DNA of 64,000 nt from a virus: positions 64,001 through 128,000 of IMG/VR virus record IMGVR_UViG_3300005288_000001. One strand, given 5' to 3'. Positions 4,428-51,400 of the stretch are shown here, piece after piece. Under the pieces are notes generated by a model, which did not search any database, was not told the origin of the DNA, and saw nothing but the letters and a program-made list of their open reading frames with translations. How positions within the stretch are numbered: position 1 is the stretch's first letter; every line of letters starts with the position of its first letter. The position numbers and the translations under genes are program-made.

Positions 4428-5834
4428 TTAAAAGTTGAAGTCAAAGCCACCGCGCTTCTCAGCCGACTGTCCCTTTCCGAAACTAGTCTTATCAAAGGCT
4501 GGACCGGTGTCCTTGCCGCCAGAGTCAGCCAAGTCATCTTGGGCATCGTCTTCGACATTATACAACTTCATTCGAGCTTTGTCAACACCAACAACGAATC
4601 GCTTATAATAGCTTGGATCGCCATATCGATTCTTCAATTGCTTAATCATTAGCTGGTTCAACTCATCTAGCTCTTCAGTACGTATTATAGCTAGATAAAG
4701 ATCAAGCGCGTGGACGAGGCCCATAGACTCCGACGTATCGGTCATGGAAATATCCGACGAACCAATACCACCACGATTAACCTGGGTCGCCGTCAGGATA
4801 GGAACATTGTATTCCACAGCCAGACCACGGACTTCTTCGGCAATCGCCTTAACCGTCGTGTAGCTATTCGCGTTGGCGTTCGCACGGATACGCTGCGAGG
4901 CACAGATGTTCAGGTAATCGATAACGATCAAGTCTGGAACGAAACCACGCTTCTGCTTCAGATCCTCGATAAGAGCACGGAAGTGTCCAGCATGAGCACC
5001 GGAGGTTGGATACTCCTTGACGATTAGCTTACCAGTCGTACGGGAGGTAATCTTTCCCATACGCGAGTTGAACGTTCCCTGATCGATGTTTCTAAGTTGC
5101 TTGATCGGAGTATTGAACAGGTTCGCATCAATACGTTCCGCATAGCTGAACTCGGACATTTCCATCGAGATGATCAGGACGTTCTTACCCTGCATCAAAG
5201 TCGCTGCGGCGATGTGAGACATAACCAAAGACTTACCACCACCGGTTTCGGCGGCCAAACAGGTCAGGGTCTTGTTTCGTAAGCCGATACCATCCGTGAT
5301 CTTGTTGAGCAGATCAATGTCGAACTTGATACCAGTTTCTTGGGAGTGATAGTGTGCAAAACGATCGTCTGCATTCTCGAAGTAATCGTGACCAATGTTC
5401 GTGTCAAACGAAACGGCCAGGGCTTCTTGAAGCAGGGTTGGAATAGATTCTTGGGTACGCTTCTTGTCAACACCTTCCACAATCGCAATGGAATTGTAGA
5501 TAGCATTGTATACCGCCTTGGCCTTACAGAACTTCTCAGTTTCGTCTAGGAGCCATTGCTCGTTAACAGTTTCTGCCGCGAGCCCGTCAATAATTTCCGT
5601 CGTTGTTTTAATGTCCGCTTCCGTCAAATCCTTACGATTTGCAATAGCGATATTCAGCACCTCATGTGTACATGCCTTGGAGTACTTCTCAAAGAACTCC
5701 ACTGCGGATTCAATAAGCACTCGCTCATGACGATTCTCAAAGTATTCTGGCTTTAAGAAAGGTACAACCTTTCGGGTGTACTTTTCGTCATAGAGCAAGT
5801 GGGAAAGGATAGACTGCTCAATGCGTGCTGTCAA
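4428..5834 (-). CDS. 41: replicative DnaB-like helicase gp41
   Basis: Walker A AETGGGKS, SMEMSE, IVIDYLNIC, TATQVNR, QLKNRY; T4 synteny. Confidence 0.95.
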   Translation of the reverse strand: MTARIEQSILSHLLYDEKYTRKVVPFLKPEYFENRHERVLIESAVEFFEKYSKACTHEVLNIAIANRKDLTEADIKTTTEIIDGLAAETVNEQWLLDETEKFCKAKAVYNAIYNSIAIVEGVDKKRTQESIPTLLQEALAVSFDTNIGHDYFENADDRFAHYHSQETGIKFDIDLLNKITDGIGLRNKTLTCLAAETGGGKSLVMSHIAAATLMQGKNVLIISMEMSEFSYAERIDANLFNTPIKQLRNIDQGTFNSRMGKITSRTTGKLIVKEYPTSGAHAGHFRALIEDLKQKRGFVPDLIVIDYLNICASQRIRANANANSYTTVKAIAEEVRGLAVEYNVPILTATQVNRGGIGSSDISMTDTSESMGLVHALDLYLAIIRTEELDELNQLMIKQLKNRYGDPSYYKRFVVGVDKARMKLYNVEDDAQDDLADSGGKDTGPAFDKTSFGKGQSAEKRGGFDFNF

Positions 5835-5836
5835 GA

Positions 5837-6112
5837 TTAGGTTCCACCTGTGTAAATAATAGAGTTTTTCTGCACTCCTTCTCGAAGCAGGTCCGTCAGG
5901 TGATCACCTAATTCCTGCTCAAAGGCTTCAACATCGAATTCCTCGAGGGGATTTTCGATGATATCATAATCAAATTTAAGTGCCAGCTGATCGTTCTTTT
6001 TGTCTTCAAGCAGCTGAACCTTGGAGTAACTAAAAATTATACCCGCAAACGGTCCCTCTGTAAAGGCCAAGGCCTCGATTGGTCCGTTGATGTGGCTCTC
6101 AGTGTTTCTCAT
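5837..6112 (-). CDS. conserved T4-like protein at the gp40 position
   Basis: Acidic 91-aa ORF between uvsX and 41, where T4 has gene 40. Confidence 0.5.
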   Translation of the reverse strand: MRNTESHINGPIEALAFTEGPFAGIIFSYSKVQLLEDKKNDQLALKFDYDIIENPLEEFDVEAFEQELGDHLTDLLREGVQKNSIIYTGGT

Positions 6113-6320
6113 TTACACCCTTCGTAATGTAGTCGGCTGGATAATGTGCTCCGTTAGGGAGTCGAATGTAGAACTTGTCCCATGGAACAGTCATGTAATA
6201 GGTCGTCAGGATAACATCGAATGGACCGGTGATAACATCGATCCATCGCTCACCCTGGAAACCCACCAAGACACATCCCTTCTTGTACTCGAAAAGCTGC
6301 TCGATGATTTCCTTCTTCAT
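6099..6320 (-). CDS. hypothetical protein
   Basis: Tightly coupled ORF after uvsX. Confidence 0.55.
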   Translation of the reverse strand: MKKEIIEQLFEYKKGCVLVGFQGERWIDVITGPFDVILTTYYMTVPWDKFYIRLPNGAHYPADYITKGVNEKH

Positions 6321-7439
6321 TTATTCCACCTTTAGGTTAATTCCAATTGGTTCGTCTAGGTCGGAGTAGTCGTCATCCAGAAGTGAATCTGCAATGTCGT
6401 CATCCATATCGCTAGACATGATGTTACCGTTCGCTACTTGGTACTTCTGACGAATCCATTCCTTGAACGTTTCATCTGCCAGAATCTGATTCCAGAACAC
6501 CGAGTGATTCGTCTGCGCTTCACGCCAGTTCTTTTCCTCGATCTCACCAGTACCAGTGTTCACACGAGCGTACCAGCCGTTCTTTGGCTTGATAACGTGG
6601 CCGGATTCAAGTGCCATATCCAACAGACCGGACCACTTGTTAATCCCCTTCTCGTACATAACGTTGATAATGATCTTCGACTTTTCGCGAACGTAACGTG
6701 ACTTCTCAACATTAATCACGAAGTTCCAACCAACGATCTCAGTACCGTCCTTCTCTTGCTGACGACCGATAATGTAGATGTTATCTGCCGAGTAGTAAAT
6801 ACCCGTACCACCAGAAACGACTGCCTTCGAGTACATTTCCTGGGTTTGGTATGTATGGTTAACAACGTCCATCTTGATGTCCTTCAACTTCAAGTGAGGA
6901 GTGACCATACGGAAGACCGACTTCAGCTGTTTAGCACGAGTCATGTCGCCAACCGACTTACTATCAAGAGCGTCGTCAACTTCCTTCTTGGATGCCAGGT
7001 TACCAATCGAGTCAACAGCGATGAATACCTTATCACCACGTTCGATACCGTCCAGCTGGTTCATGACGTCAAATTTGAATTCTTCGATGTTGGTAATCGG
7101 AACGTGTAGCACACGAGACATGTCGATGTTGTATGCCTGGAAGTATGCTTGGGGAGTACCAAACTCACTATCATAGAAGATACAGATTGAGTCCTTATAC
7201 TTGTCCAGATACGACTTGATCATCAGGAGAAGATAGGAGGTCTTGAAGTGCTTGGAAGGACCGGCCCAGATGGTCAGGCCAGGTTCAAATCCACCATCAA
7301 GGTCACCCGAAAGGGCAACGTTAATTGCGGGGACTTGGGTTGTGATCATGTCCTTCTTATGGAAGAACTTAGAAACAGCTAGAACAGCCGTATCCTTGAT
7401 CGTTGAGTTTTTCTGTAGTTTATCGAGTAGTTTGGACAT
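6321..7439 (-). CDS. uvsX: RecA-like recombinase UvsX
   Basis: AGPSKHFKT, YDSEFG, DSIGNLASKKE, NHTY, VSGGTG. Confidence 0.95.
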   Translation of the reverse strand: MSKLLDKLQKNSTIKDTAVLAVSKFFHKKDMITTQVPAINVALSGDLDGGFEPGLTIWAGPSKHFKTSYLLLMIKSYLDKYKDSICIFYDSEFGTPQAYFQAYNIDMSRVLHVPITNIEEFKFDVMNQLDGIERGDKVFIAVDSIGNLASKKEVDDALDSKSVGDMTRAKQLKSVFRMVTPHLKLKDIKMDVVNHTYQTQEMYSKAVVSGGTGIYYSADNIYIIGRQQEKDGTEIVGWNFVINVEKSRYVREKSKIIINVMYEKGINKWSGLLDMALESGHVIKPKNGWYARVNTGTGEIEEKNWREAQTNHSVFWNQILADETFKEWIRQKYQVANGNIMSSDMDDDIADSLLDDDYSDLDEPIGINLKVE

Positions 7440-12402: not shown

Positions 12403-12834
12403 TCAGTCCGGCAGCTGTTCCAGCAGGCTGGAAATGTCGTATTGGAATCGTTCCTTCATCGCATCCAGAACGTCGTCAGGAACACCGTGTACGTTGCCCC
12501 AGTTGGTTTGGCAGACGAAGACCGTAGGTTGCTTCCCATAGGTATGGATCATGTCAACATACGGCTTCATTTCCTTGAGGGTCGTGAAGGTATTCGAGAC
12601 GATAACATGCCCGCCACGTCCCAGTGCTTCGGCCGTAGACTGCTGACACCAAGCATGGGCCTGGCGCAGCTTCTGGCGGTCAAACTTGTATTCCCGGCCA
12701 TCCATGAAATACTGGTCAGCCTCGAAATGATAGCCCACAAGACCCAGAGAAATCCACGAATTAACCAAATTCTTTGCCAAGGTAGACTTACCTGATCCAG
12801 GGATGCCACGAATAAGAGTGAGAGAAGGATTCAT
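12403..12834 (-). CDS. P-loop kinase (AAA_33 / polynucleotide-kinase-like)
   Basis: IRGIPGSGKST, EADQYF, AHAWCQ, VIVSNTF, NVHGVP. Confidence 0.85.
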   Translation of the reverse strand: MNPSLTLIRGIPGSGKSTLAKNLVNSWISLGLVGYHFEADQYFMDGREYKFDRQKLRQAHAWCQQSTAEALGRGGHVIVSNTFTTLKEMKPYVDMIHTYGKQPTVFVCQTNWGNVHGVPDDVLDAMKERFQYDISSLLEQLPD

Positions 12835-13430
12835 CAGTCAGTTCCCGATCCATGAGTTTTGATATCGCCGGTGAGGCAGTATCCTACAACGTCATCCATT
12901 CGACGAACCACAGCACCGTCAGAATAGACAGCAGAATCAACACCAACGTCCATTGCACGATAACGCTCCAGACCACTAACCGAACCGTGAAGGTGTCCAT
13001 ATAGGTGTACCGCACCATGATGGCAGCGATTCCATTCGGCAATCGGGAAATGGAACATAACGACCTTGACAGGCTTCTTAGGTTCATTCTCACGTGGTTC
13101 TTCCAAGGTGTATTCGATTTCGAGATAGTCGTGGATACTCACGAATTGCTTCCGGAACCGATCGTTTTGCAACATCTTCTTGTCGTGGTTACCCACAACC
13201 AGAATCTTCTTGCCGAACAGACGATAGGCAATATCAGTTGCCTTGTCCGCAGCCAGGAAGGCGAAGTCTCCAAGAATGAAAACCGTGTCGGTCGGATGAA
13301 CCTTGGTGTTCCACTCTTGGATGAACTTCTCATTCATTTCATCGATATCCGCAAACTTCCGGGTTGCCGGATTGAATTTGAGGATGTTAGCGTGACCGAA
13401 ATGCAGATCACTCGTTACCCATGTTGTCAT
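12834..13430 (-). CDS. calcineurin-like metallophosphoesterase
   Basis: SDLHFGH, LGD, GNHD, HFP, GHLH, DVGVD; start re-assigned to MTTWVTSD. Confidence 0.9.
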   Translation of the reverse strand: MTTWVTSDLHFGHANILKFNPATRKFADIDEMNEKFIQEWNTKVHPTDTVFILGDFAFLAADKATDIAYRLFGKKILVVGNHDKKMLQNDRFRKQFVSIHDYLEIEYTLEEPRENEPKKPVKVVMFHFPIAEWNRCHHGAVHLYGHLHGSVSGLERYRAMDVGVDSAVYSDGAVVRRMDDVVGYCLTGDIKTHGSGTD

Positions 13431-13434
13431 TCTT

Positions 13435-13881
13435 TTACCAATCAAACGTGAAGCTGTGGTATCCTTCGGCCAGGATAGCTTCCTTAAAGTCATCGAGATT
13501 CGCCGGAGTGAATGGCTTCATGCGTTCCAGATTTTCCGGATCCACTTCGGTTTCGCCGTCTTCGAGTTCAAAGTAGCTGGCGATTTGTTCATCTACCAAA
13601 TCAAGCAGTTCTACGCTGTCGTACTTAGAATCCACGAAAGTGTCGTACCATTCGATGTCGCCATGCTTCTTCTCAAATTCAGGGAAGTGCATGATCCATT
13701 GATGGTTGTCGCGCAGTTCATTAGGAACTCCACGGAAGAAGTACCACCGTTCATCCAAGGAAAGTTCCTTATCAGTGTAGATGCTACGCAGTTCCTTCTT
13801 CATCGCCTTGATCGAATCGACCAAAACGCCGCAAACTTCCAGACATGCGTCCGGGCCAGTGGTATCAAGTTGTTGTTCCAT
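13435..13881 (-). CDS. acidic hypothetical protein
   Basis: Lies between the Rnl1-like and phosphoesterase genes; start MEQQLD with AGGA RBS. Confidence 0.6.
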   Translation of the reverse strand: MEQQLDTTGPDACLEVCGVLVDSIKAMKKELRSIYTDKELSLDERWYFFRGVPNELRDNHQWIMHFPEFEKKHGDIEWYDTFVDSKYDSVELLDLVDEQIASYFELEDGETEVDPENLERMKPFTPANLDDFKEAILAEGYHSFTFDW

Positions 13882-14761
13882 AATCTTCCTTAGAGAGGTA
13901 TTGTTCAATAAAAGCACGACGTTCTTGTTCTTCCATCACGTCGAACGTCTCACGGTTCGCGGAGAGGTAATCGAGGAGAGGATAGTACTCCTCATCGATC
14001 TTCTGCTTCGCGTTTCGTGCAATCAACGTTTCCATATCCCGGCCACGCATAAACAGCTTCTTCACCAGGTAATGGGGTGACTTAATTTTAGCTGAAACGC
14101 CGTCCTCGGTATAGAACACGTAGCCCTCGTGCTGGCAGGTCTTGATCTGTTCCTTGAGGGCACCGATAGTTGTATACCAAGCCATCGGACGACCATACTG
14201 GGTCCACATATGTTCCATGCCACGAGTGATGTCGTTGTAACGGACGCCGATTTCGTACATTCCCGGTGCTTCATAGATGATATGTGGGTCTTCGGGATGG
14301 CAGCACTCGAACAACATGGTGGCGTTCTTTCCGCGCAGGTATGCGTTGAGCGAATCCATATAATCCGTTCCCATCTTTTCCAGCATTTCAGTTGCCATTA
14401 GGGCAAACGACGAATCAATTGATCCGGTCGTCGAAACGAACAGCTTACCCTTGTACGAGCTGACAGCGGCCATGAAGCCATTGTACTTTCGCATCGCCAC
14501 AATTTTGGTATCGTCGGCCAGCTTCGGAGCTTCCTTCTCGATGCCATAGTTATAGACCTTCCGGAAGGGAAGGCTGACGATGTTCCAGTCCTTGTCAACC
14601 ACGGTCCCTCGACAGTCTTCCAGGAAGCGATTCCACAGACCATCGTAGAAGACCTTACGCTTGTACTTCAGCACAAACAGGTCGGGATTGCTGGTTGGTT
14701 TCTTGTCTACCAGCTTCGGGTTTGCCTCAACCCAACGAATAAAATCAAGAGGAAGTTTCAT
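13865..14761 (-). CDS. RNA ligase 1 family (T4 RnlA-like)
   Basis: CRG, PFRKVYNY, motif I KYNG, LFE, EGYV, KIKS; start MKLPLDF. Confidence 0.8.
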   Translation of the reverse strand: MKLPLDFIRWVEANPKLVDKKPTSNPDLFVLKYKRKVFYDGLWNRFLEDCRGTVVDKDWNIVSLPFRKVYNYGIEKEAPKLADDTKIVAMRKYNGFMAAVSSYKGKLFVSTTGSIDSSFALMATEMLEKMGTDYMDSLNAYLRGKNATMLFECCHPEDPHIIYEAPGMYEIGVRYNDITRGMEHMWTQYGRPMAWYTTIGALKEQIKTCQHEGYVFYTEDGVSAKIKSPHYLVKKLFMRGRDMETLIARNAKQKIDEEYYPLLDYLSANRETFDVMEEQERRAFIEQYLSKEDYGTTT

Positions 14762-14763
14762 AA

Positions 14764-15708
14764 TTAAGCCATTGCAGGTTGACCGACGTAAGGAGTGACC
14801 ACGCCAGATTTCACATCTTCCCAAAACTGATTGACATAATTGGGGTCATAAAGTTCCACGACAGCATCGTAGTGGTCCCAGGCAAACTCGCGGAACCATC
14901 CGGAAGTAATGCTGGTGCAAACCTTTTCGAGCGCCATCAGGAAACTCTCCAACGGAGTCTTCATCCCAGGGAATGGTATTTGTGAACGTTCAAGAGCCAG
15001 CACCATTGACTCCTCAAGAACGCCATGCAGGCGAATCTGTTGGGGAGCTGCATAGAACAGTTCCCTCGAACAGAAGACGTCTGCCTCATCTTCCTTGTAG
15101 ACTTCATACGCAGGTTGGTATCCTCGCATCACACTCCGATGAATCGAGTCGTGGTCATACTTGTAGTCCACGCCATCACCGTTGAAGAACCGCGACTTAC
15201 TAACATTGAGCTTTGGGTGCCCATAGTTGTAAGTCGCAATTTCTCGCCGGCGATAGAAATCCATATGGATTGGATCAATCTCAGCGCCAAGATTTCTCAT
15301 CATCTTGATGTCCGCCATTGTCTTGTGAAAGTGCGGCGAGTTCTTCAGATACCGATGACTCATCTTCAGCATGTACAGGAAGTTGAAGCTCGGCACAAAC
15401 ATCTGGGAAGACCTGATGTCATAGCCTTGTGTATCATCATCTGCCATTGCCGTCTCGTACAGGTCTTCTGCAGAACTGTCAGGCCAAACGATCTCAGCCT
15501 CGAAGATTTGGCTATTTTGGTACTTCGCTACCAGCTTCTTCCCTTGGCTGATTGGAATCAAACTACGAAGACCATGCTTCGATTTGAAATACTCAACCAG
15601 ATCATCGTAATATCCTACCAGGTCATAGTCCTGGCCATAGCTACGATGATCAATTGGGTGGTGAAAACGTGCAGCATGGCTACCAACCAAAAGCAAGGGA
15701 TGTTTCAT
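14764..15708 (-). CDS. putative nucleotidyltransferase-fold protein
   Basis: N-terminal LVGS...DYDLV (GS plus DxD, Pol-beta-like) followed by LKMSH, HDSIH, EESMVLALER, KVCTSITSGWFR. Confidence 0.55.
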   Translation of the reverse strand: MKHPLLLVGSHAARFHHPIDHRSYGQDYDLVGYYDDLVEYFKSKHGLRSLIPISQGKKLVAKYQNSQIFEAEIVWPDSSAEDLYETAMADDDTQGYDIRSSQMFVPSFNFLYMLKMSHRYLKNSPHFHKTMADIKMMRNLGAEIDPIHMDFYRRREIATYNYGHPKLNVSKSRFFNGDGVDYKYDHDSIHRSVMRGYQPAYEVYKEDEADVFCSRELFYAAPQQIRLHGVLEESMVLALERSQIPFPGMKTPLESFLMALEKVCTSITSGWFREFAWDHYDAVVELYDPNYVNQFWEDVKSGVVTPYVGQPAMA

Positions 15709-15709
15709 A

Positions 15710-15904
15710 TTAGCAGTTGCTGGAGTTCCAGCCAGAAGCTTCGGCAGAGTCGGTGACCAGGTCGTTGATCACCGAATTGTCGCTCAGGTCGAGACCAAGA
15801 CTGAAGTCGCGGTTGAGGGCGTTGAATTCACCGATCGCGTCCGCGATGATTTGGGTGATAACGCTTGCCTTTTCGAGGGCTTCTTCACGAGTCATTTGTG
15901 TCAT
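15710..15904 (-). CDS. small acidic protein, paralog C, ends GWNSSNC
   Basis: Shares the N-terminal helix pattern and C-terminal motif with its two neighbours. Confidence 0.75.
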   Translation of the reverse strand: MTQMTREEALEKASVITQIIADAIGEFNALNRDFSLGLDLSDNSVINDLVTDSAEASGWNSSNC

Positions 15905-15913
15905 GTTTAGTCC

Positions 15914-16144
15914 TTAGCAGCTTTGGCTGGATGGATACCAACCGTTTTGGGATTCACCGTAACCACCACCTTCTTGGTCGGCATCGGCTCCTTTGAAGTA
16001 ACCACCCATTCCATAGGCGACTTCAAAGTTGAAGGTGAGATCGTATTCGATGGCAAGAGCCTCAGCAGCGTTGATAGAAGCATAAGCCGCAGCCAGGTGC
16101 TCAGAGATTTTAGCATTTGCTTCTTGTTTGGTGAGTGTTGTCAT
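15914..16144 (-). CDS. small acidic protein, paralog B, ends GWYPSSQSC
   Basis: AAGGA RBS; LTFNFE segment shared with paralog A. Confidence 0.8.
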   Translation of the reverse strand: MTTLTKQEANAKISEHLAAAYASINAAEALAIEYDLTFNFEVAYGMGGYFKGADADQEGGGYGESQNGWYPSSQSC

Positions 16145-16152
16145 ATTTCCTT

Positions 16153-16404
16153 TTAGCAGTAAGAGCTGCTATTTCGCCAGCCCGGTTGTTCAAGTTGTTC
16201 GCGTTGCCAGTCTTCATACCACTCGGCATCTTCAGGTTGGATACCTGGCTTGCCTTCGTAATATCCTTCGATGGATTCGTCGTGTTCGAAACGGAAGGTC
16301 AGACCGAACTGCTTGGCGAGTTCTTCACACTCGTTTAGCAACGCGGTCACTTCTTCCATCTTGACAGCGATTAGGGCATTCGCTTGTTGTTCCGTCAATG
16401 ACAT
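16153..16404 (-). CDS. small acidic protein, paralog A, ends GWRNSSSYC
   Basis: AAGGA RBS before MSLTEQQANA; first gene after the promoter. Confidence 0.8.
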   Translation of the reverse strand: MSLTEQQANALIAVKMEEVTALLNECEELAKQFGLTFRFEHDESIEGYYEGKPGIQPEDAEWYEDWQREQLEQPGWRNSSSYC

Positions 16405-16426
16405 AGAGTCCTTGGTTAAGTTAATC

Positions 16427-16456
16427 AGCCTAAGCACTAATTTTACCTTTTGTCAA
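16427..16456 (-). promoter_or_regulatory. sigma70-type promoter TTGACA-N18-TAGGCT heading the accessory block
   Basis: Perfect -35 box immediately downstream of a terminator. Confidence 0.6.
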
Positions 16457-16467
16457 GGAGCAAATTG

Positions 16468-16490
16468 AAAAAGCGGCCGAAGCCGCTTTT
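16468..16490 (-). terminator. intrinsic terminator GCGGC-TTCG-GCCGC-TTTTT
   Basis: C(UUCG)G tetraloop hairpin typical of T4-like phages; T runs on both strands. Confidence 0.85.
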
Positions 16491-16491
16491 G

Positions 16492-16782
16492 TTAAGGAAT
16501 TAGAATACCGGAAGTCTGTTTAGTGTATTCTTTGATGAGAGCTCCTACAGGCTCTCCAATGGCCACAATACCATTGGGTGGAAACACTGCAACGTTCTTT
16601 TCAACGTATGGGAGGAACGGGATAAGACCCATCTGCAGCTCACCTTGTGGCGACCATTGAGTCTTTACCTCGAATGGATCGTTCAGTTGGAAACAACCAT
16701 CGGTCTCATGGGCGTTCCAGGCATTGGAAACCTTGCCGATAATTTCTTGACCAGTGGTCAGCTTAAGAATAATGTAGCTCAT
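16492..16782 (-). CDS. conserved T4-like small protein (Sm-like fold, KLTTGQEII)
   Basis: N-terminal KLxxGEEII-type motif, similar to 29464..29814. Confidence 0.65.
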   Translation of the reverse strand: MSYIILKLTTGQEIIGKVSNAWNAHETDGCFQLNDPFEVKTQWSPQGELQMGLIPFLPYVEKNVAVFPPNGIVAIGEPVGALIKEYTKQTSGILIP

Positions 16783-48401: not shown

Positions 48402-51400
48402 TTACGTCAGTCGTTCGACTGTGAAGAATATTTGGTAGCGAGCGGTTCCAATAGTTCCCGTTACAGTTGTTGTGTACTGAGCAGTACCAATTGCCATACG
48501 AGCAATAATAGAACCTTGCGTGTAGTTCGCTGCCGCCATAGAGATAGAAGGAATGACCACGCTTCGTAGTTGACCAGCGGCATCATTGAAGAAGATAGTC
48601 GACGCCACCGTTGCCGTGCCGCTGGATACTTCCGTTGCCAGATAGTAGGTGATACGATAATCGCCTTCAGCCCATGCCGTGAACAAGTTCGTAGCACCGA
48701 TAGAAGTAGATTGGGTCTTCAGAGCCTTCTTAGCCTTGATTGCTGGAATGCACGAAATCAGGTTATCAATAGTCGTTGGCCATACAGCGTTGTTCGTTTC
48801 AACCACACCATGGACCAGATTAGGACGCGCGCCTGAACCCGGAGTCGAGATATTTGCCCAGCTGGTGAACAAAGCTCCAGTATCAACACCGTAGAATGCA
48901 TTACTTGCTGGCCATACGTTGTTGATCGTATAGTCAAGAGCCACACATGTCGCGCTGCCGTTACCGCCAAAGAAGTGAACGTTATGGAACTGGTTACTAT
49001 CACAAGATGCTAGATAGATACCATAGACCACGTTTGAGCCAGTCGCAAAGGTAACAACCACGTTCGTGAAGTGGCAGTAGTCCGTGTTGCTGTTGAGCAA
49101 TCCTGTGCAGTGGATACCGATAGCACCAGTAACGTTTGGCACTTCGATGCTGATATTGTCGAAACGATTATGCAGACTGTCTACGTTATCCACACCAGAC
49201 ACAGTGTTAGCAACTGTGGTTGACAGGATAGAATACTTGCATCCCTTGAAGGACAGGTCTTGGCAAGAACCGAAAGCAGCTGACACCACATGCAAACCAG
49301 CAGAGGCAACACCACTTCCTTCAAATTCGATACGGTCAACACCCCATCCAACGAGTGGACCGGCAAGCTTGATCATAACCAAGACAGAAGCGCTCGCCCA
49401 TACCAGCTTCGTAGTGGCAGTTGTAGCCATACCAGCCAGTGCGTATTGCGGACGTGGAACACCTTCACCAACCAAACGAACGCCACGAATGGTAGACGCG
49501 GCCGAGCTGGTTCCATCACCGATCGTAATGCTGGTCGATAGACGATACGTTCCCTTAGGAAGATAAACTTCACCACCAGATGTACCAAGATAGTTGATGG
49601 CAGCCTGGATAGCGCAACCGTCAATTTCTTCAGTCAGGGCAGCAGCGAATGGATATACCACTTGAGCCGCAGCCAGGGTAGCATATTGCGCTGATAGTGG
49701 GTGAGTCGTCCCATCACCGTAGGCACCAAAGTCCTTAACGTTGATACGATTATTCAGGTCGTTAATGTAACGTGAACTGTTAGACTTCTGTACCTTGACC
49801 CCAGTGTGACCTGACGAATCAATCTGATAGAACGTGTTCGATGATGGGCGACCACCTGAATCTTGCTCGTTTACAGCGTGACGCATCTTTCCGTTACCGG
49901 CCCAAGACTGTAGATTCGACACCTTGTTGTTAACGGTTCCCGAACCATAGAACAGAACCGCAGCGCCTTCTGTTTCGTCTAGCGAGTTTGGATTGGTGAT
50001 CGAAAGACCATCTACAGTGTTGAACTGGCAGTTGTCGGCAATAGCAAATCCAGACTTAGCGGGCGAATTGATCTGCCCACCAATTATCTTGTTGAAGTTA
50101 GAAAATGTACCAAGGCTCAGACCTGATACATTATTGTCGCCCCAGATAGACATACCAAAGTCTGTAGATGCCCAAGTGGCATTACCTGTCCAGAAGATAG
50201 ATGGATTGACAATATCGCAGTTGTTGCAATTCAGCAGATTGATACCTTCCAGCTTGGTGTCCCAAGTGCGGTGGTTAATAATCTTACCACGACCCACATT
50301 GTACATCTGTGCACCCATCTGTGTACAGTTAAATGTCGTACAATCGATGATAGCATGGTCGCTTCCGCTAACGTTTTGGATACCGTGCGAAGTGTATACA
50401 TTAGACACGACACAGTTACGTGTGTGGATATTGCTGCCACCCGAATGATAGATGCCGATCTGTTGAGCTTCGTTTACTGTGATTCGTTCGAAATCGCATT
50501 GGCTAGAAGCTGATGTGTTGATACCGAAGGCTGCAGATGCTGAGATCAGAATATCCGATGCCTTAATCTGAGCACTTGAATCTACGAAGATACAACTCGC
50601 AGCTGTGAAAGTAGCACGTTCAGCGTACAGCTGGAAGTTGCTCAAATTCACATTGGTCTTGCTGCTAATCAAGAACCACTTGTTGCCTGTAATCGTTGAT
50701 CCAAACGGAATGAAAACGGTATTCATTCCCGACCCACGGAAGTTCATATTCGAACCAAATGTAATCTGGTCCGTATAGTAAAGTCCGCCTGGTACAAAGA
50801 TGCCACCACGCCCATAAGTCGCCATCGCATTGATAGCGTCTTGAATGTTGGTCTGTAGATTCGATGTTTCAGTCTGAGCTGAAATTGTAGAATGCTTAGC
50901 AGGTGGAATAAAACGGAACAAGGAAACTTCATCACCGTTCGCCATATCAGACAGCGTCTTAACATACGCTGGTGCGACTGGGTCCGCGTGGGGAACCATT
51001 GTCGACGTGATACCAGCAACCGTTCCGGTGAATGTTGGTGAAGCTAGAGTAGCATAACCTTGCGCCTTGACGTAAGCGGTCGTGGCAATTTGAGTCGTGT
51101 TGGTACCAGTGGATGCTGTTGGAGCTGTTGGAGTACCAGTCAGGGCAGGGGATGCTAGAGTAGCATAAGCCTGTGCCTTGACATATGCAGTGGTCGCAAT
51201 CTGAGTCGTGTTGGTACCAGTGGATGCTGTTGGAGCTAGTGGCGTACCAGTTAGAGATGGAGATGCAAGTGGCGCATAAGCCTGTCCAATAACAAACGCA
51301 GTTGTGGCGATTTGTGTGGTGTTGGTGTTGGCAGCTGCGGTTGTTGAAGTTGGTGTGCCAGTAAGAGCGGGCGATGCAAGAGTTGCATACGCTTGAGCCT

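Follow-up and report, generated by a model that had tools for sequence, protein, structure and literature searches.

Why should a virus encode three small proteins, alike in an N-terminal helix and a short C-terminal motif, one behind the other and directly in front of a single enzyme? The question is raised by a stretch of viral DNA of 64,000 nucleotides (nt) (positions 64,001 to 128,000 of the IMG/VR record IMGVR_UViG_3300005288_000001; hereafter the window), in which three open reading frames (ORFs) for small acidic proteins, here called mini-proteins 1, 2 and 3, and an ORF for a putative nucleotidyltransferase follow a terminator in that order, all on the minus strand (Table 1). The genome to which the window belongs is a complete virus record of 172.5 kb with terminal repeats, and it is T4-like, with the gp44/62 clamp loader and RegA encoded just upstream of the module. 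We conclude that the module is a nucleotidyltransferase with cognate small partners, akin to MenAT1 and to the type VII toxin-antitoxin pairs, in a gene layout that resembles those for ribosomally synthesized and post-translationally modified peptides (RiPPs).

Co-occurrence of the mini-proteins and the enzyme

We have studied the linkage between the two components in a sample of 80 viral loci around homologues of the enzyme, with 4-kb flanks, by means of a hidden Markov model (HMM) of the mini-proteins built from the tail-bearing ORFs. A match was found in 75 of the 80 loci, nearly always just upstream of the enzyme, and the number of mini-proteins per locus was 1 (25 loci), 2 (20), 3 (17), 4 (5), 5 (4) or 6 (4), so that the co-occurrence and the variation in copy number anticipated by an earlier reading of the sequence alone (the original prediction) are both borne out. 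In three of the five loci without a match the enzyme lies at the edge of a contig, where upstream DNA is lacking; a fourth is a second enzyme gene, and the other enzyme gene on that contig does have a mini-protein. The highest copy number was seen at locus L092 (2588-5919), where nine tandem mini-proteins precede the enzyme, the latter being called as two ORFs owing to a run of unknown bases. The closest relative of the locus in the window is L004, whose enzyme is 64% identical.

The motif itself tells the same story. In its strict form the tail ends 143 of the 974 ORFs in the 2.6-kb zone upstream of the enzyme on the same strand, versus 17 of 5,090 other ORFs, a distribution far from chance; several of these 17 are in fact genuine mini-proteins located downstream. 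A looser form of the motif occurs in 170 ORFs, of which 148 are on the strand of the enzyme gene and no more than 2.5 kb upstream of it. When all ORFs of the 80 loci were clustered, only the enzyme and the mini-proteins were common to more than 10 loci: the surrounding genes vary between T4-like and phapecocta-like phages, Pseudomonas phages of roughly 100 kb and jumbo phages, while the mini-proteins and the enzyme are constant. In the reverse search, which started from the mini-protein subfamily with the AYGMGG motif (see below), both matches with enough context (L091 and L092) have the enzyme just downstream, and L098, reached through an enzyme-ligase fusion, has two mini-proteins just upstream. 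At L091 the enzyme gene shares its 3' end with an overlapping HNH endonuclease gene (5830-6495), which points to mobile elements passing through that locus.

In T4-like phages, small early genes often move together as a block, and one could suppose that the pair are neighbours by descent without any joint function. We give this explanation hardly any weight: the pair recurs in unrelated contexts and lineages while all other neighbours change, its gene junctions are tight or overlapping, and phage T4 has neither the enzyme nor the mini-proteins, which are thus absent together. Since the pairing is strict, a single enzyme faces many mini-proteins and the tail is invariant, we infer that the enzyme recognizes the tail; mini-proteins and enzyme are very probably direct functional partners through it.

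A constant tail on divergent bodies

The statistics of the tail were obtained from 171 distinct mini-proteins. These range in size from 60 to 150 amino acids (aa) and share one layout, in which a conserved amphipathic N-terminal helix is followed by a variable acidic middle and by the tail G-W-x-x-S-(S)-x(1 or 3)-C, usually at the C-terminus. The bodies split into 51 BLAST clusters with the tail unchanged, and a single HMM finds all paralogues because the N-terminal helix is shared. Serine occupies the third position after the tryptophan (W+3) in 158 of 159 tails, and threonine or alanine is never found there; a second serine is usual at W+4 and glycine is frequent at W-1. Cysteine is the final residue in 152 of the 171 proteins. 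The spacing from tryptophan to cysteine is 7 in 102 cases, 5 in 41 and 6 in only 3, which would place Ser(W+3) and the cysteine on one face of a strand and the tryptophan on the other. Overall these numbers uphold the claim, made from the three proteins of the window, of a conserved tail on otherwise divergent bodies. Among the 1,834 ORFs of the whole genome, the ending W-x-x-S-x(1-3)-C occurs in the three mini-proteins and in one unrelated ORF (window 50231-50440, minus strand, 69 aa, ...SWKVSIC), which has no match to the HMM and probably carries the motif by chance.

The mini-proteins of the window are 26-39% identical to each other in pairwise comparisons, strongly acidic (isoelectric point (pI) 4.05-4.2), and recognized by the family HMM with E = 5e-16, 6e-20 and 8.6e-08, respectively. 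Two of the three sizes given in the original prediction, 76 and 64 aa, are right; mini-protein 1 has 82 aa, the 83 codons counted earlier including the stop. The start codon of mini-protein 1 is preceded by an AAGGA ribosome-binding site, and its sequence also matches phrog_899 (8.7e-08); orthologues of mini-proteins 1 and 3 in L004 are 49% and 62% identical. Mini-protein 2 belongs to a large subfamily in which Y-G-M-G-G is invariant, and in the corresponding alignment the invariant positions are Y44-G-M-G-G48, W69, S72 and C76. The profile of this subfamily matches 930 representative clusters, all of them small proteins in which the match runs to the C-terminus; a search for longer, fused mini-proteins found none, which is weak evidence.

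An AlphaFold (AF2) model of mini-protein 2 (predicted local distance difference test score (pLDDT) 82.5) consists of a single long helix (residues 6-33) with an extended chain after it. Fold searches with this model gave no match in Foldseek, generic helices only in VIA-align (best Z 3.2) and unnamed clusters only in the ESM Atlas. Likewise, the mini-proteins contain no Pfam domain and no HEPN R-x(4-6)-H motif, and searches of NCBIfam, PADLOC and the PDB sequences with them were empty.

Could the tail serve only as a docking peptide, with the variable body recruiting a host protein or nucleic acid for nucleotidylylation? The mini-proteins would then be exchangeable specificity subunits, as suits their many-to-one layout, the occurrence side by side of anciently diverged body subfamilies, and the preservation of tail and helix while the middle varies; bodies of such strong acidity (pI about 4.1) could bind host proteins that are basic and themselves bind nucleic acids. 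However, mere docking should tolerate a change from serine to threonine or alanine at W+3, and none was seen. The bodies are also very small, often one helix and a linker, and no third conserved component came out of the clustering of the 80 loci. We consider this explanation unlikely.

The cysteine is not always the end of the protein. Some mini-proteins have 1-3 residues beyond it, or a complete internal tail plus further sequence; two complete tails in tandem, an internal W-x-S-S-x-C and a terminal one, are found in L018 (3754-3984), L099 (2107-2325) and L056 (2098-2568). The tandem motifs mean that a free carboxylate right after the cysteine is not always present. This bears on the idea that the terminal cysteine is adenylated at its carboxylate, for ligation to a target in the manner of Pup- or ubiquitin-like tagging, or for cyclization. 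The usual position of the cysteine at the very end agrees with such an activation, and small acidic carriers with a conserved C-terminal motif recall Pup and LysW; yet the extensions past the cysteine, a structural clade of the enzyme (see below) that is known to act on hydroxyls and not on carboxylates, and the lack of a conserved ligase or E2-like partner in the locus clustering make it very improbable. Finally, proteins of L055 (2901-3305) and L060 (7404-7664) match the helical body of the mini-proteins and have a longer, different C-terminus without the W..S..C tail; they may represent a tail-less sister family.

Fold and conserved motifs of the enzyme

The two Pfam domains of the enzyme, DUF7277 and DUF7275, are domains of unknown function, and the same holds for phrog_2141. 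Conservation was analysed in an alignment of 26 homologues, about 50% identical. The signature G9-S10 ... D27-Y28-D29 agrees with the pattern of the pol-beta-like superfamily, an hG[GS] motif with [DE]h[DE]h on the next strand; residues G9, S10 and D27 show no substitution, and D29 is kept in at least 90% of the sequences. E70 and E72, which lie on strand 68-73 of the structural model, are nearly invariant and are candidates for the third catalytic carboxylate. The C-terminal two thirds of the protein contain long invariant blocks (SHRYLKNSPHF, YDHDSIH, ALERSQ and KVCTSITSGWFR), with invariant histidine, aspartate, glutamate and cysteine residues in the C-terminal domain.

In the AF2 model (pLDDT 88.5, predicted template-modelling score 0.83), residues 1-160 adopt the pol-beta nucleotidyltransferase fold (Foldseek probability 1.0). 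The best structural match is MenT1, with Z 9.7 (156 residues aligned over residues 1-280 of the model) and a Foldseek E of 4e-4; next come ANT(2'') (Z 8.7), TglT/MenT3 (8.3), JHP933, LnuA and TM1012 (about 8), and MenT4 (7.6). Apart from members of its own family, the enzyme is nearest in the ESM Atlas to AbiEii-like clusters (template-modelling score 0.6 by target). The nucleotidyltransferase that had been proposed from the signature is thus confirmed in its conserved motifs and in a MenT1-like predicted core, and on the evidence of the model the enzyme belongs to the pol-beta-like superfamily, in the MenT/AbiEii/ANT structural clade. This kinship is not apparent from sequence profiles: no match to PF08843 (AbiEii) or PF10127 (RlaP) was obtained in Pfam even at E up to 10, and the NCBIfam, PADLOC and PDB sequence searches were all empty. 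For the C-terminal domain (about 160-314) the fold searches gave nothing clear (Z at most 3.8). Confidence is low (pLDDT 47) in a loop around residues 163-170, where many residues are invariant (Y160, Y162, H164, P165, K171, F174 and F175); the loop could be a lid that becomes ordered on binding of a ligand. Co-folding of the enzyme (A1) with mini-protein 2 (A2), with a score of 0.20 and a mark of 0.32, weighs neither way.

A pairing of the enzyme's Cys264 with the cysteine of the tail was considered and is ruled out, as 7 loci have alanine at position 264 and normal tails. The same 7 loci count against a RiPP-like maturation, in which Ser(W+3) would be activated by nucleotidylylation or phosphorylation and eliminated to dehydroalanine, and the cysteine thiol would add to it, forming a C-terminal, lanthionine-like thioether ring. 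Such a ring would explain why both serine and cysteine are invariant, why they share a strand face and why only two spacings (i+2 and i+4) are used, and the large conserved C-terminal domain without a known fold could hold the second activity. Several short precursor genes served by one modifying enzyme are the usual RiPP layout; prochlorosins and ProcM exemplify such clusters, where a single maturase serves many precursor genes, and the tandem short genes of the module share with RiPP clusters a common recognition element for one modifying enzyme and a conserved reactive serine and cysteine. In the module, however, the conserved element is C-terminal, the variable part is a helix with a linker and the products are cytoplasmic viral proteins, so that the conserved and variable parts are reversed relative to leader and core peptides. 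Neither a conserved leader with a variable core nor a lyase, cyclase, protease, exporter or transporter was found among the conserved neighbours, and to our knowledge there is no lanthipeptide dehydratase with a nucleotidyltransferase fold. We regard this maturation as improbable.

A proposed modification of the tail

In the mechanism that we favour, the module would be a phage-specific two-component system composed of an enzyme of the MenT/AbiEii/ANT clade and an array of 1-9 small acidic proteins. The helix of a mini-protein would dock on the enzyme, and its tail would occupy the acceptor channel in the form of an extended strand, anchored on one side by the tryptophan and with Ser(W+3) and the terminal cysteine facing the opposite side. 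The enzyme would move a nucleoside monophosphate (NMP), or a phosphate, from a nucleoside triphosphate onto the hydroxyl of Ser(W+3), and each paralogue would then take its modified tail to a different target. That the MenT-like enzyme binds or chemically modifies the tail is the most likely interpretation of the data. That the serine is the acceptor, by nucleotidylylation or phosphorylation, is a plausible but by no means secure proposal; a residue that is never replaced, even by threonine, is best explained in this way. Somewhat more tentative is the fuller scheme, in which the enzyme recognizes W-x-x-S-S-x-x-C and modifies it covalently, arming diversifying acidic effectors against host targets; the chemistry of that scheme, O-nucleotidylylation of the serine or a serine/cysteine crosslink that depends on such an activation, is proposed with equal reserve.

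The nearest structural clade transfers NMP to hydroxyl groups, as the proposed mechanism would demand. ANT(2'') and LnuA place NMP on sugar hydroxyls. ANT(2'')-Ia and LnuA/LinB have a similar core fold (Z 8.2-8.7), and in these enzymes the hydroxyl is that of a non-nucleic-acid acceptor held by the helical C-terminal part, the same chemistry that is proposed here for the serine of the tail; they differ in that their acceptors are small molecules and they are bacterial resistance genes without partner proteins. A precedent for a small acidic carrier modified at one serine is found in the holo-acyl carrier protein synthases CitX and MdcG (EC 2.7.7.61 and 2.7.7.66), which attach a phosphodiester-linked group; these belong to another family and have a single carrier and a donor derived from coenzyme A, made by a specialized partner enzyme of which the module has no counterpart. 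MenT acts on the 3'-OH of tRNA (PMC10435456), MenT1 can phosphorylate a protein hydroxyl, that of its own T39 (PMC11375011), and MntA is described as adenylylating its partner HepT (PMC7641770). HepT/MntA resembles the phage module as a pol-beta-fold enzyme whose substrate, modified by O-AMPylation of a hydroxyl, is the protein of the adjacent gene; it differs from the module in that the partner is a HEPN RNase, poly-adenylylated on tyrosine, in a one-to-one relationship and in bacterial genomes. The mini-proteins, unlike HepT, are non-enzymatic, carry a serine/cysteine tail and stand many to one.

Several observations weigh against a modification of the tail. Simple nucleotidylylation of the serine does not account for the invariant cysteine. 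A few members lack the terminal cysteine or the tail (those of L055 and L060, and one copy in phage Konradin that ends ...NWSNSES). Distant homologues of the enzyme in actinophages (L095 and L096) have no tail-bearing mini-proteins nearby. An RNA ligase gene directly follows the enzyme in the window (Rnl1-like) and in phage RSP15 (Rnl2), and among the 131 downstream ORFs analysed, RNA ligase is more frequent than any other Pfam family (5 ORFs). One natural fusion of the enzyme with Rnl2 exists (L098 4001-5893, P0271; PF09414 and PF21189), again with two mini-proteins upstream; it was the single result of a search for longer forms of the enzyme, and could be genuine or could reflect the loss of a stop codon. 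Lastly, tRNA genes lie within 4 kb of the enzyme in 17 of the 80 loci.

These observations raise the alternative of a MenAT1-like pair, in which the enzyme would be a nucleotidyltransferase of RNA or tRNA 3' ends, engaged in repair or in host shut-off, and the mini-proteins would be regulators like MenA1: their helix would block the enzyme or trigger auto-phosphorylation of the serine in its G-S motif, with the tail as a pseudo-substrate plug. The parallels with MenAT1 (Rv0078A/Rv0078B; MenT/AbiEii, DUF1814) are the following. MenT1 is the top structural match of the enzyme, and in the phage module as in MenAT1 a gene directly upstream encodes a small protein (60-100 aa) that is largely a single helix; MenA1, a protein of 68 aa with a 32-residue helix and a flexible C-terminus, acts on its enzyme by blocking the active sites of MenT1 (PMC10435456), and it induces the auto-phosphorylation of MenT1 at T39 (PMC11375011), showing that this active site can target a protein hydroxyl. 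The model of mini-protein 2 is likewise one long helix and an extended chain, and the helix is conserved over the paralogues well enough for one HMM. The RNA links (the ligases here and in RSP15, the Rnl2 fusion, the tRNA genes, and single downstream occurrences of Thg1, of a cyclic-phosphate-processing domain (cREC) and of a HisRS-like gene) and the actinophage homologues, which work without mini-proteins, also fit this alternative.

On the other hand, up to nine inhibitors per enzyme are hard to explain, and the tail, the most conserved part of the mini-proteins, contrasts with a MenA1 C-terminus that is dispensable (PMC10435456). The phage module has 1-9 partners versus one, with a tail that is not found in MenA1, and shows no sequence similarity to MenA1 or to PF08843; the enzyme is extended by a conserved domain of about 150 residues and is acidic overall (pI 5.8, net charge -10); and the module resides in virulent phages, unlike the MenT/AbiEii systems of bacterial chromosomes. 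RNA ligase genes within 4 kb of the enzyme were found by phmmer in about 5 of the 80 viral loci, plus the window, or about 6-9% of loci, which is close to chance in genomes with two ligase genes. Taken together, we judge the MenAT1-like alternative, the strongest rival of the favoured mechanism, possible but on the unlikely side. With a ligase near only this small fraction of loci and tRNA genes near 17 of 80, a coupling to RNA repair was rejected as the main explanation of the module; the link, weak though present, is counted only in favour of the MenAT1-like alternative.

RNA-repair genes and tRNA genes in the surroundings

In the window itself the operon continues without gaps past the enzyme into genes of the RNA-repair type (12834-14761, minus strand): the Rnl1-like ligase, a DUF7020 protein and a calcineurin-like metallophosphoesterase, which together look like a set for RNA end-healing and sealing. 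A DUF7020 gene is also found near the enzyme in L042, L066 and L091. The pol-beta nucleotidyltransferase RlaP (PF10127), which is associated with RNA ligases in phages and in bacteria and extends damaged RNA 3' ends by 1-2 NMP, is comparable in that it sometimes lies beside an RNA ligase, as the enzyme does here at a distance of 2 nt and in the one Rnl2 fusion. It differs in the absence of a PF10127 match from our enzyme, in the rarity of ligase adjacency for the latter, and in having no mini-protein partners. The genome to which the window belongs has 23 tRNA genes called by ARAGORN (G000:C1 26756-44665, outside the window), among which are one with anticodon tca, called tRNA-SeC and possibly a UGA suppressor, and one with the four-base anticodon tttg.

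The actinophage homologues, L095 (gp16 of Gordonia phage Aphelion) and L096 (prophiT49-2 gp90), have kept G-S/D-x-D and HDSIH, while the KVCTSITSGWFR block is absent; the Aphelion copy lies 1.2 kb from an array of five tRNA genes. Their occurrence without mini-proteins suggests that the enzyme lineage can work alone, and fits an ancestral acceptor that was not a protein (RNA).

Distribution

The enzyme family comprises 2,543 homologues in the protein collection and is present in 732 deposited phage genomes, the main hosts being Escherichia, Acinetobacter, Aeromonas, Pseudomonas, Vibrio, Enterobacter and Klebsiella. The carriers include many large lytic phages of Gram-negative bacteria; the same layout is seen in the named phages RSP15, Konradin and SYP, and among E. 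coli phages the module is found in VR7 (five mini-proteins) and ESCO37 (three). Only 5 of 185,579 bacterial species genomes contain the enzyme, all on contigs of metagenome-assembled genomes, and the module is thus essentially viral. A tblastn search of the phage genomes with one mini-protein returned 3 records only, and is too insensitive for mapping the distribution. No paper on DUF7275 or DUF7277 was found in the literature searched, and related wording gave no description of such a module, in agreement with the earlier statement that it had no described function.

Organization of the locus in the window

The coordinates of the module, of its regulatory elements and of the downstream genes are listed in Table 1. 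A single base separates the stop codon of mini-protein 3 (15710-15712) from the ATG of the enzyme (15706-15708), as had been read from the sequence.

Table 1. Features of the module and its surroundings; positions refer to the window.
Feature	Position	Strand	Remarks
Intrinsic terminator of upstream gene	16468..16490	-	stem 16469-16490, AAAAGCGGC-UUCG-GCCGCUUUU
TTGACA, -35-like hexamer	16451..16456	-	read from sequence; under promoter-scan threshold
Mini-protein 1	16153..16401	-	82 aa, pI 4.2, net charge -12, ends GWRNSSSYC
Mini-protein 2	15914..16144	-	76 aa, AYGMGG subfamily, pI 4.2, ends GWYPSSQSC
Mini-protein 3	15710..15904	-	64 aa, pI 4.05, ends GWNSSNC
Nucleotidyltransferase	14764..15708	-	314 aa; DUF7277 (residues 6-86) and DUF7275 (111-289), phrog_2141
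Rnl1-like RNA ligase	13865-14761	-	PF09511; starts 2 nt past enzyme stop
DUF7020 protein	13435-13917	-	member of putative RNA end-healing and sealing set
Calcineurin-like metallophosphoesterase	12834-13493	-	member of the same putative set

The terminator and the promoter that the original prediction had placed upstream of the mini-proteins fared differently. The terminator is borne out by folding: its hairpin, made of a GCGGC/GCCGC core with a UUCG loop and an extension of A-U pairs, has an energy of -13.7 kcal/mol (z = -4.09 versus shuffles), and ends in a run of five U (16468-16472). A scan for consensus promoters and terminators called neither element; the terminator was probably missed because the A/U extension of the stem consumes the T-run. 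As for the promoter, the TTGACA hexamer is present as claimed, but the candidate -10 element 17-18 nt downstream (TTAGGC/TAGGCT) is weak, and the promoter is best described as putative.

Directly upstream of the terminator, an ORF of 96 aa (16492-16782, minus strand) shows a weak match to DUF6561/phrog_431, and L004 has a counterpart in the corresponding place (60% identity). In that locus a GroES-like gene of 89 aa (2557-2826) stands between the DUF6561-like gene and the mini-proteins; no such gene occurs at this position in the window.

Implications

The module is widespread, with carriers among the T4-like, phapecocta-like, Pseudomonas and jumbo phages; nevertheless, its parts have so far been known only as "DUF" or not named at all. 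An invariant tail of eight residues, carried by freely evolving proteins and tied to one enzyme, amounts to a clear and testable biochemical hypothesis, and the decisive experiments are simple, because the module is present in easily grown E. coli phages (the VR7/JS98 group and ESCO37). If the tail is modified, the module would represent a new viral protein modification together with a short, portable recognition tag. If instead the mini-proteins regulate an RNA-directed enzyme, the logic of MenAT would extend to virulent phages and to conflicts over tRNA damage and repair.

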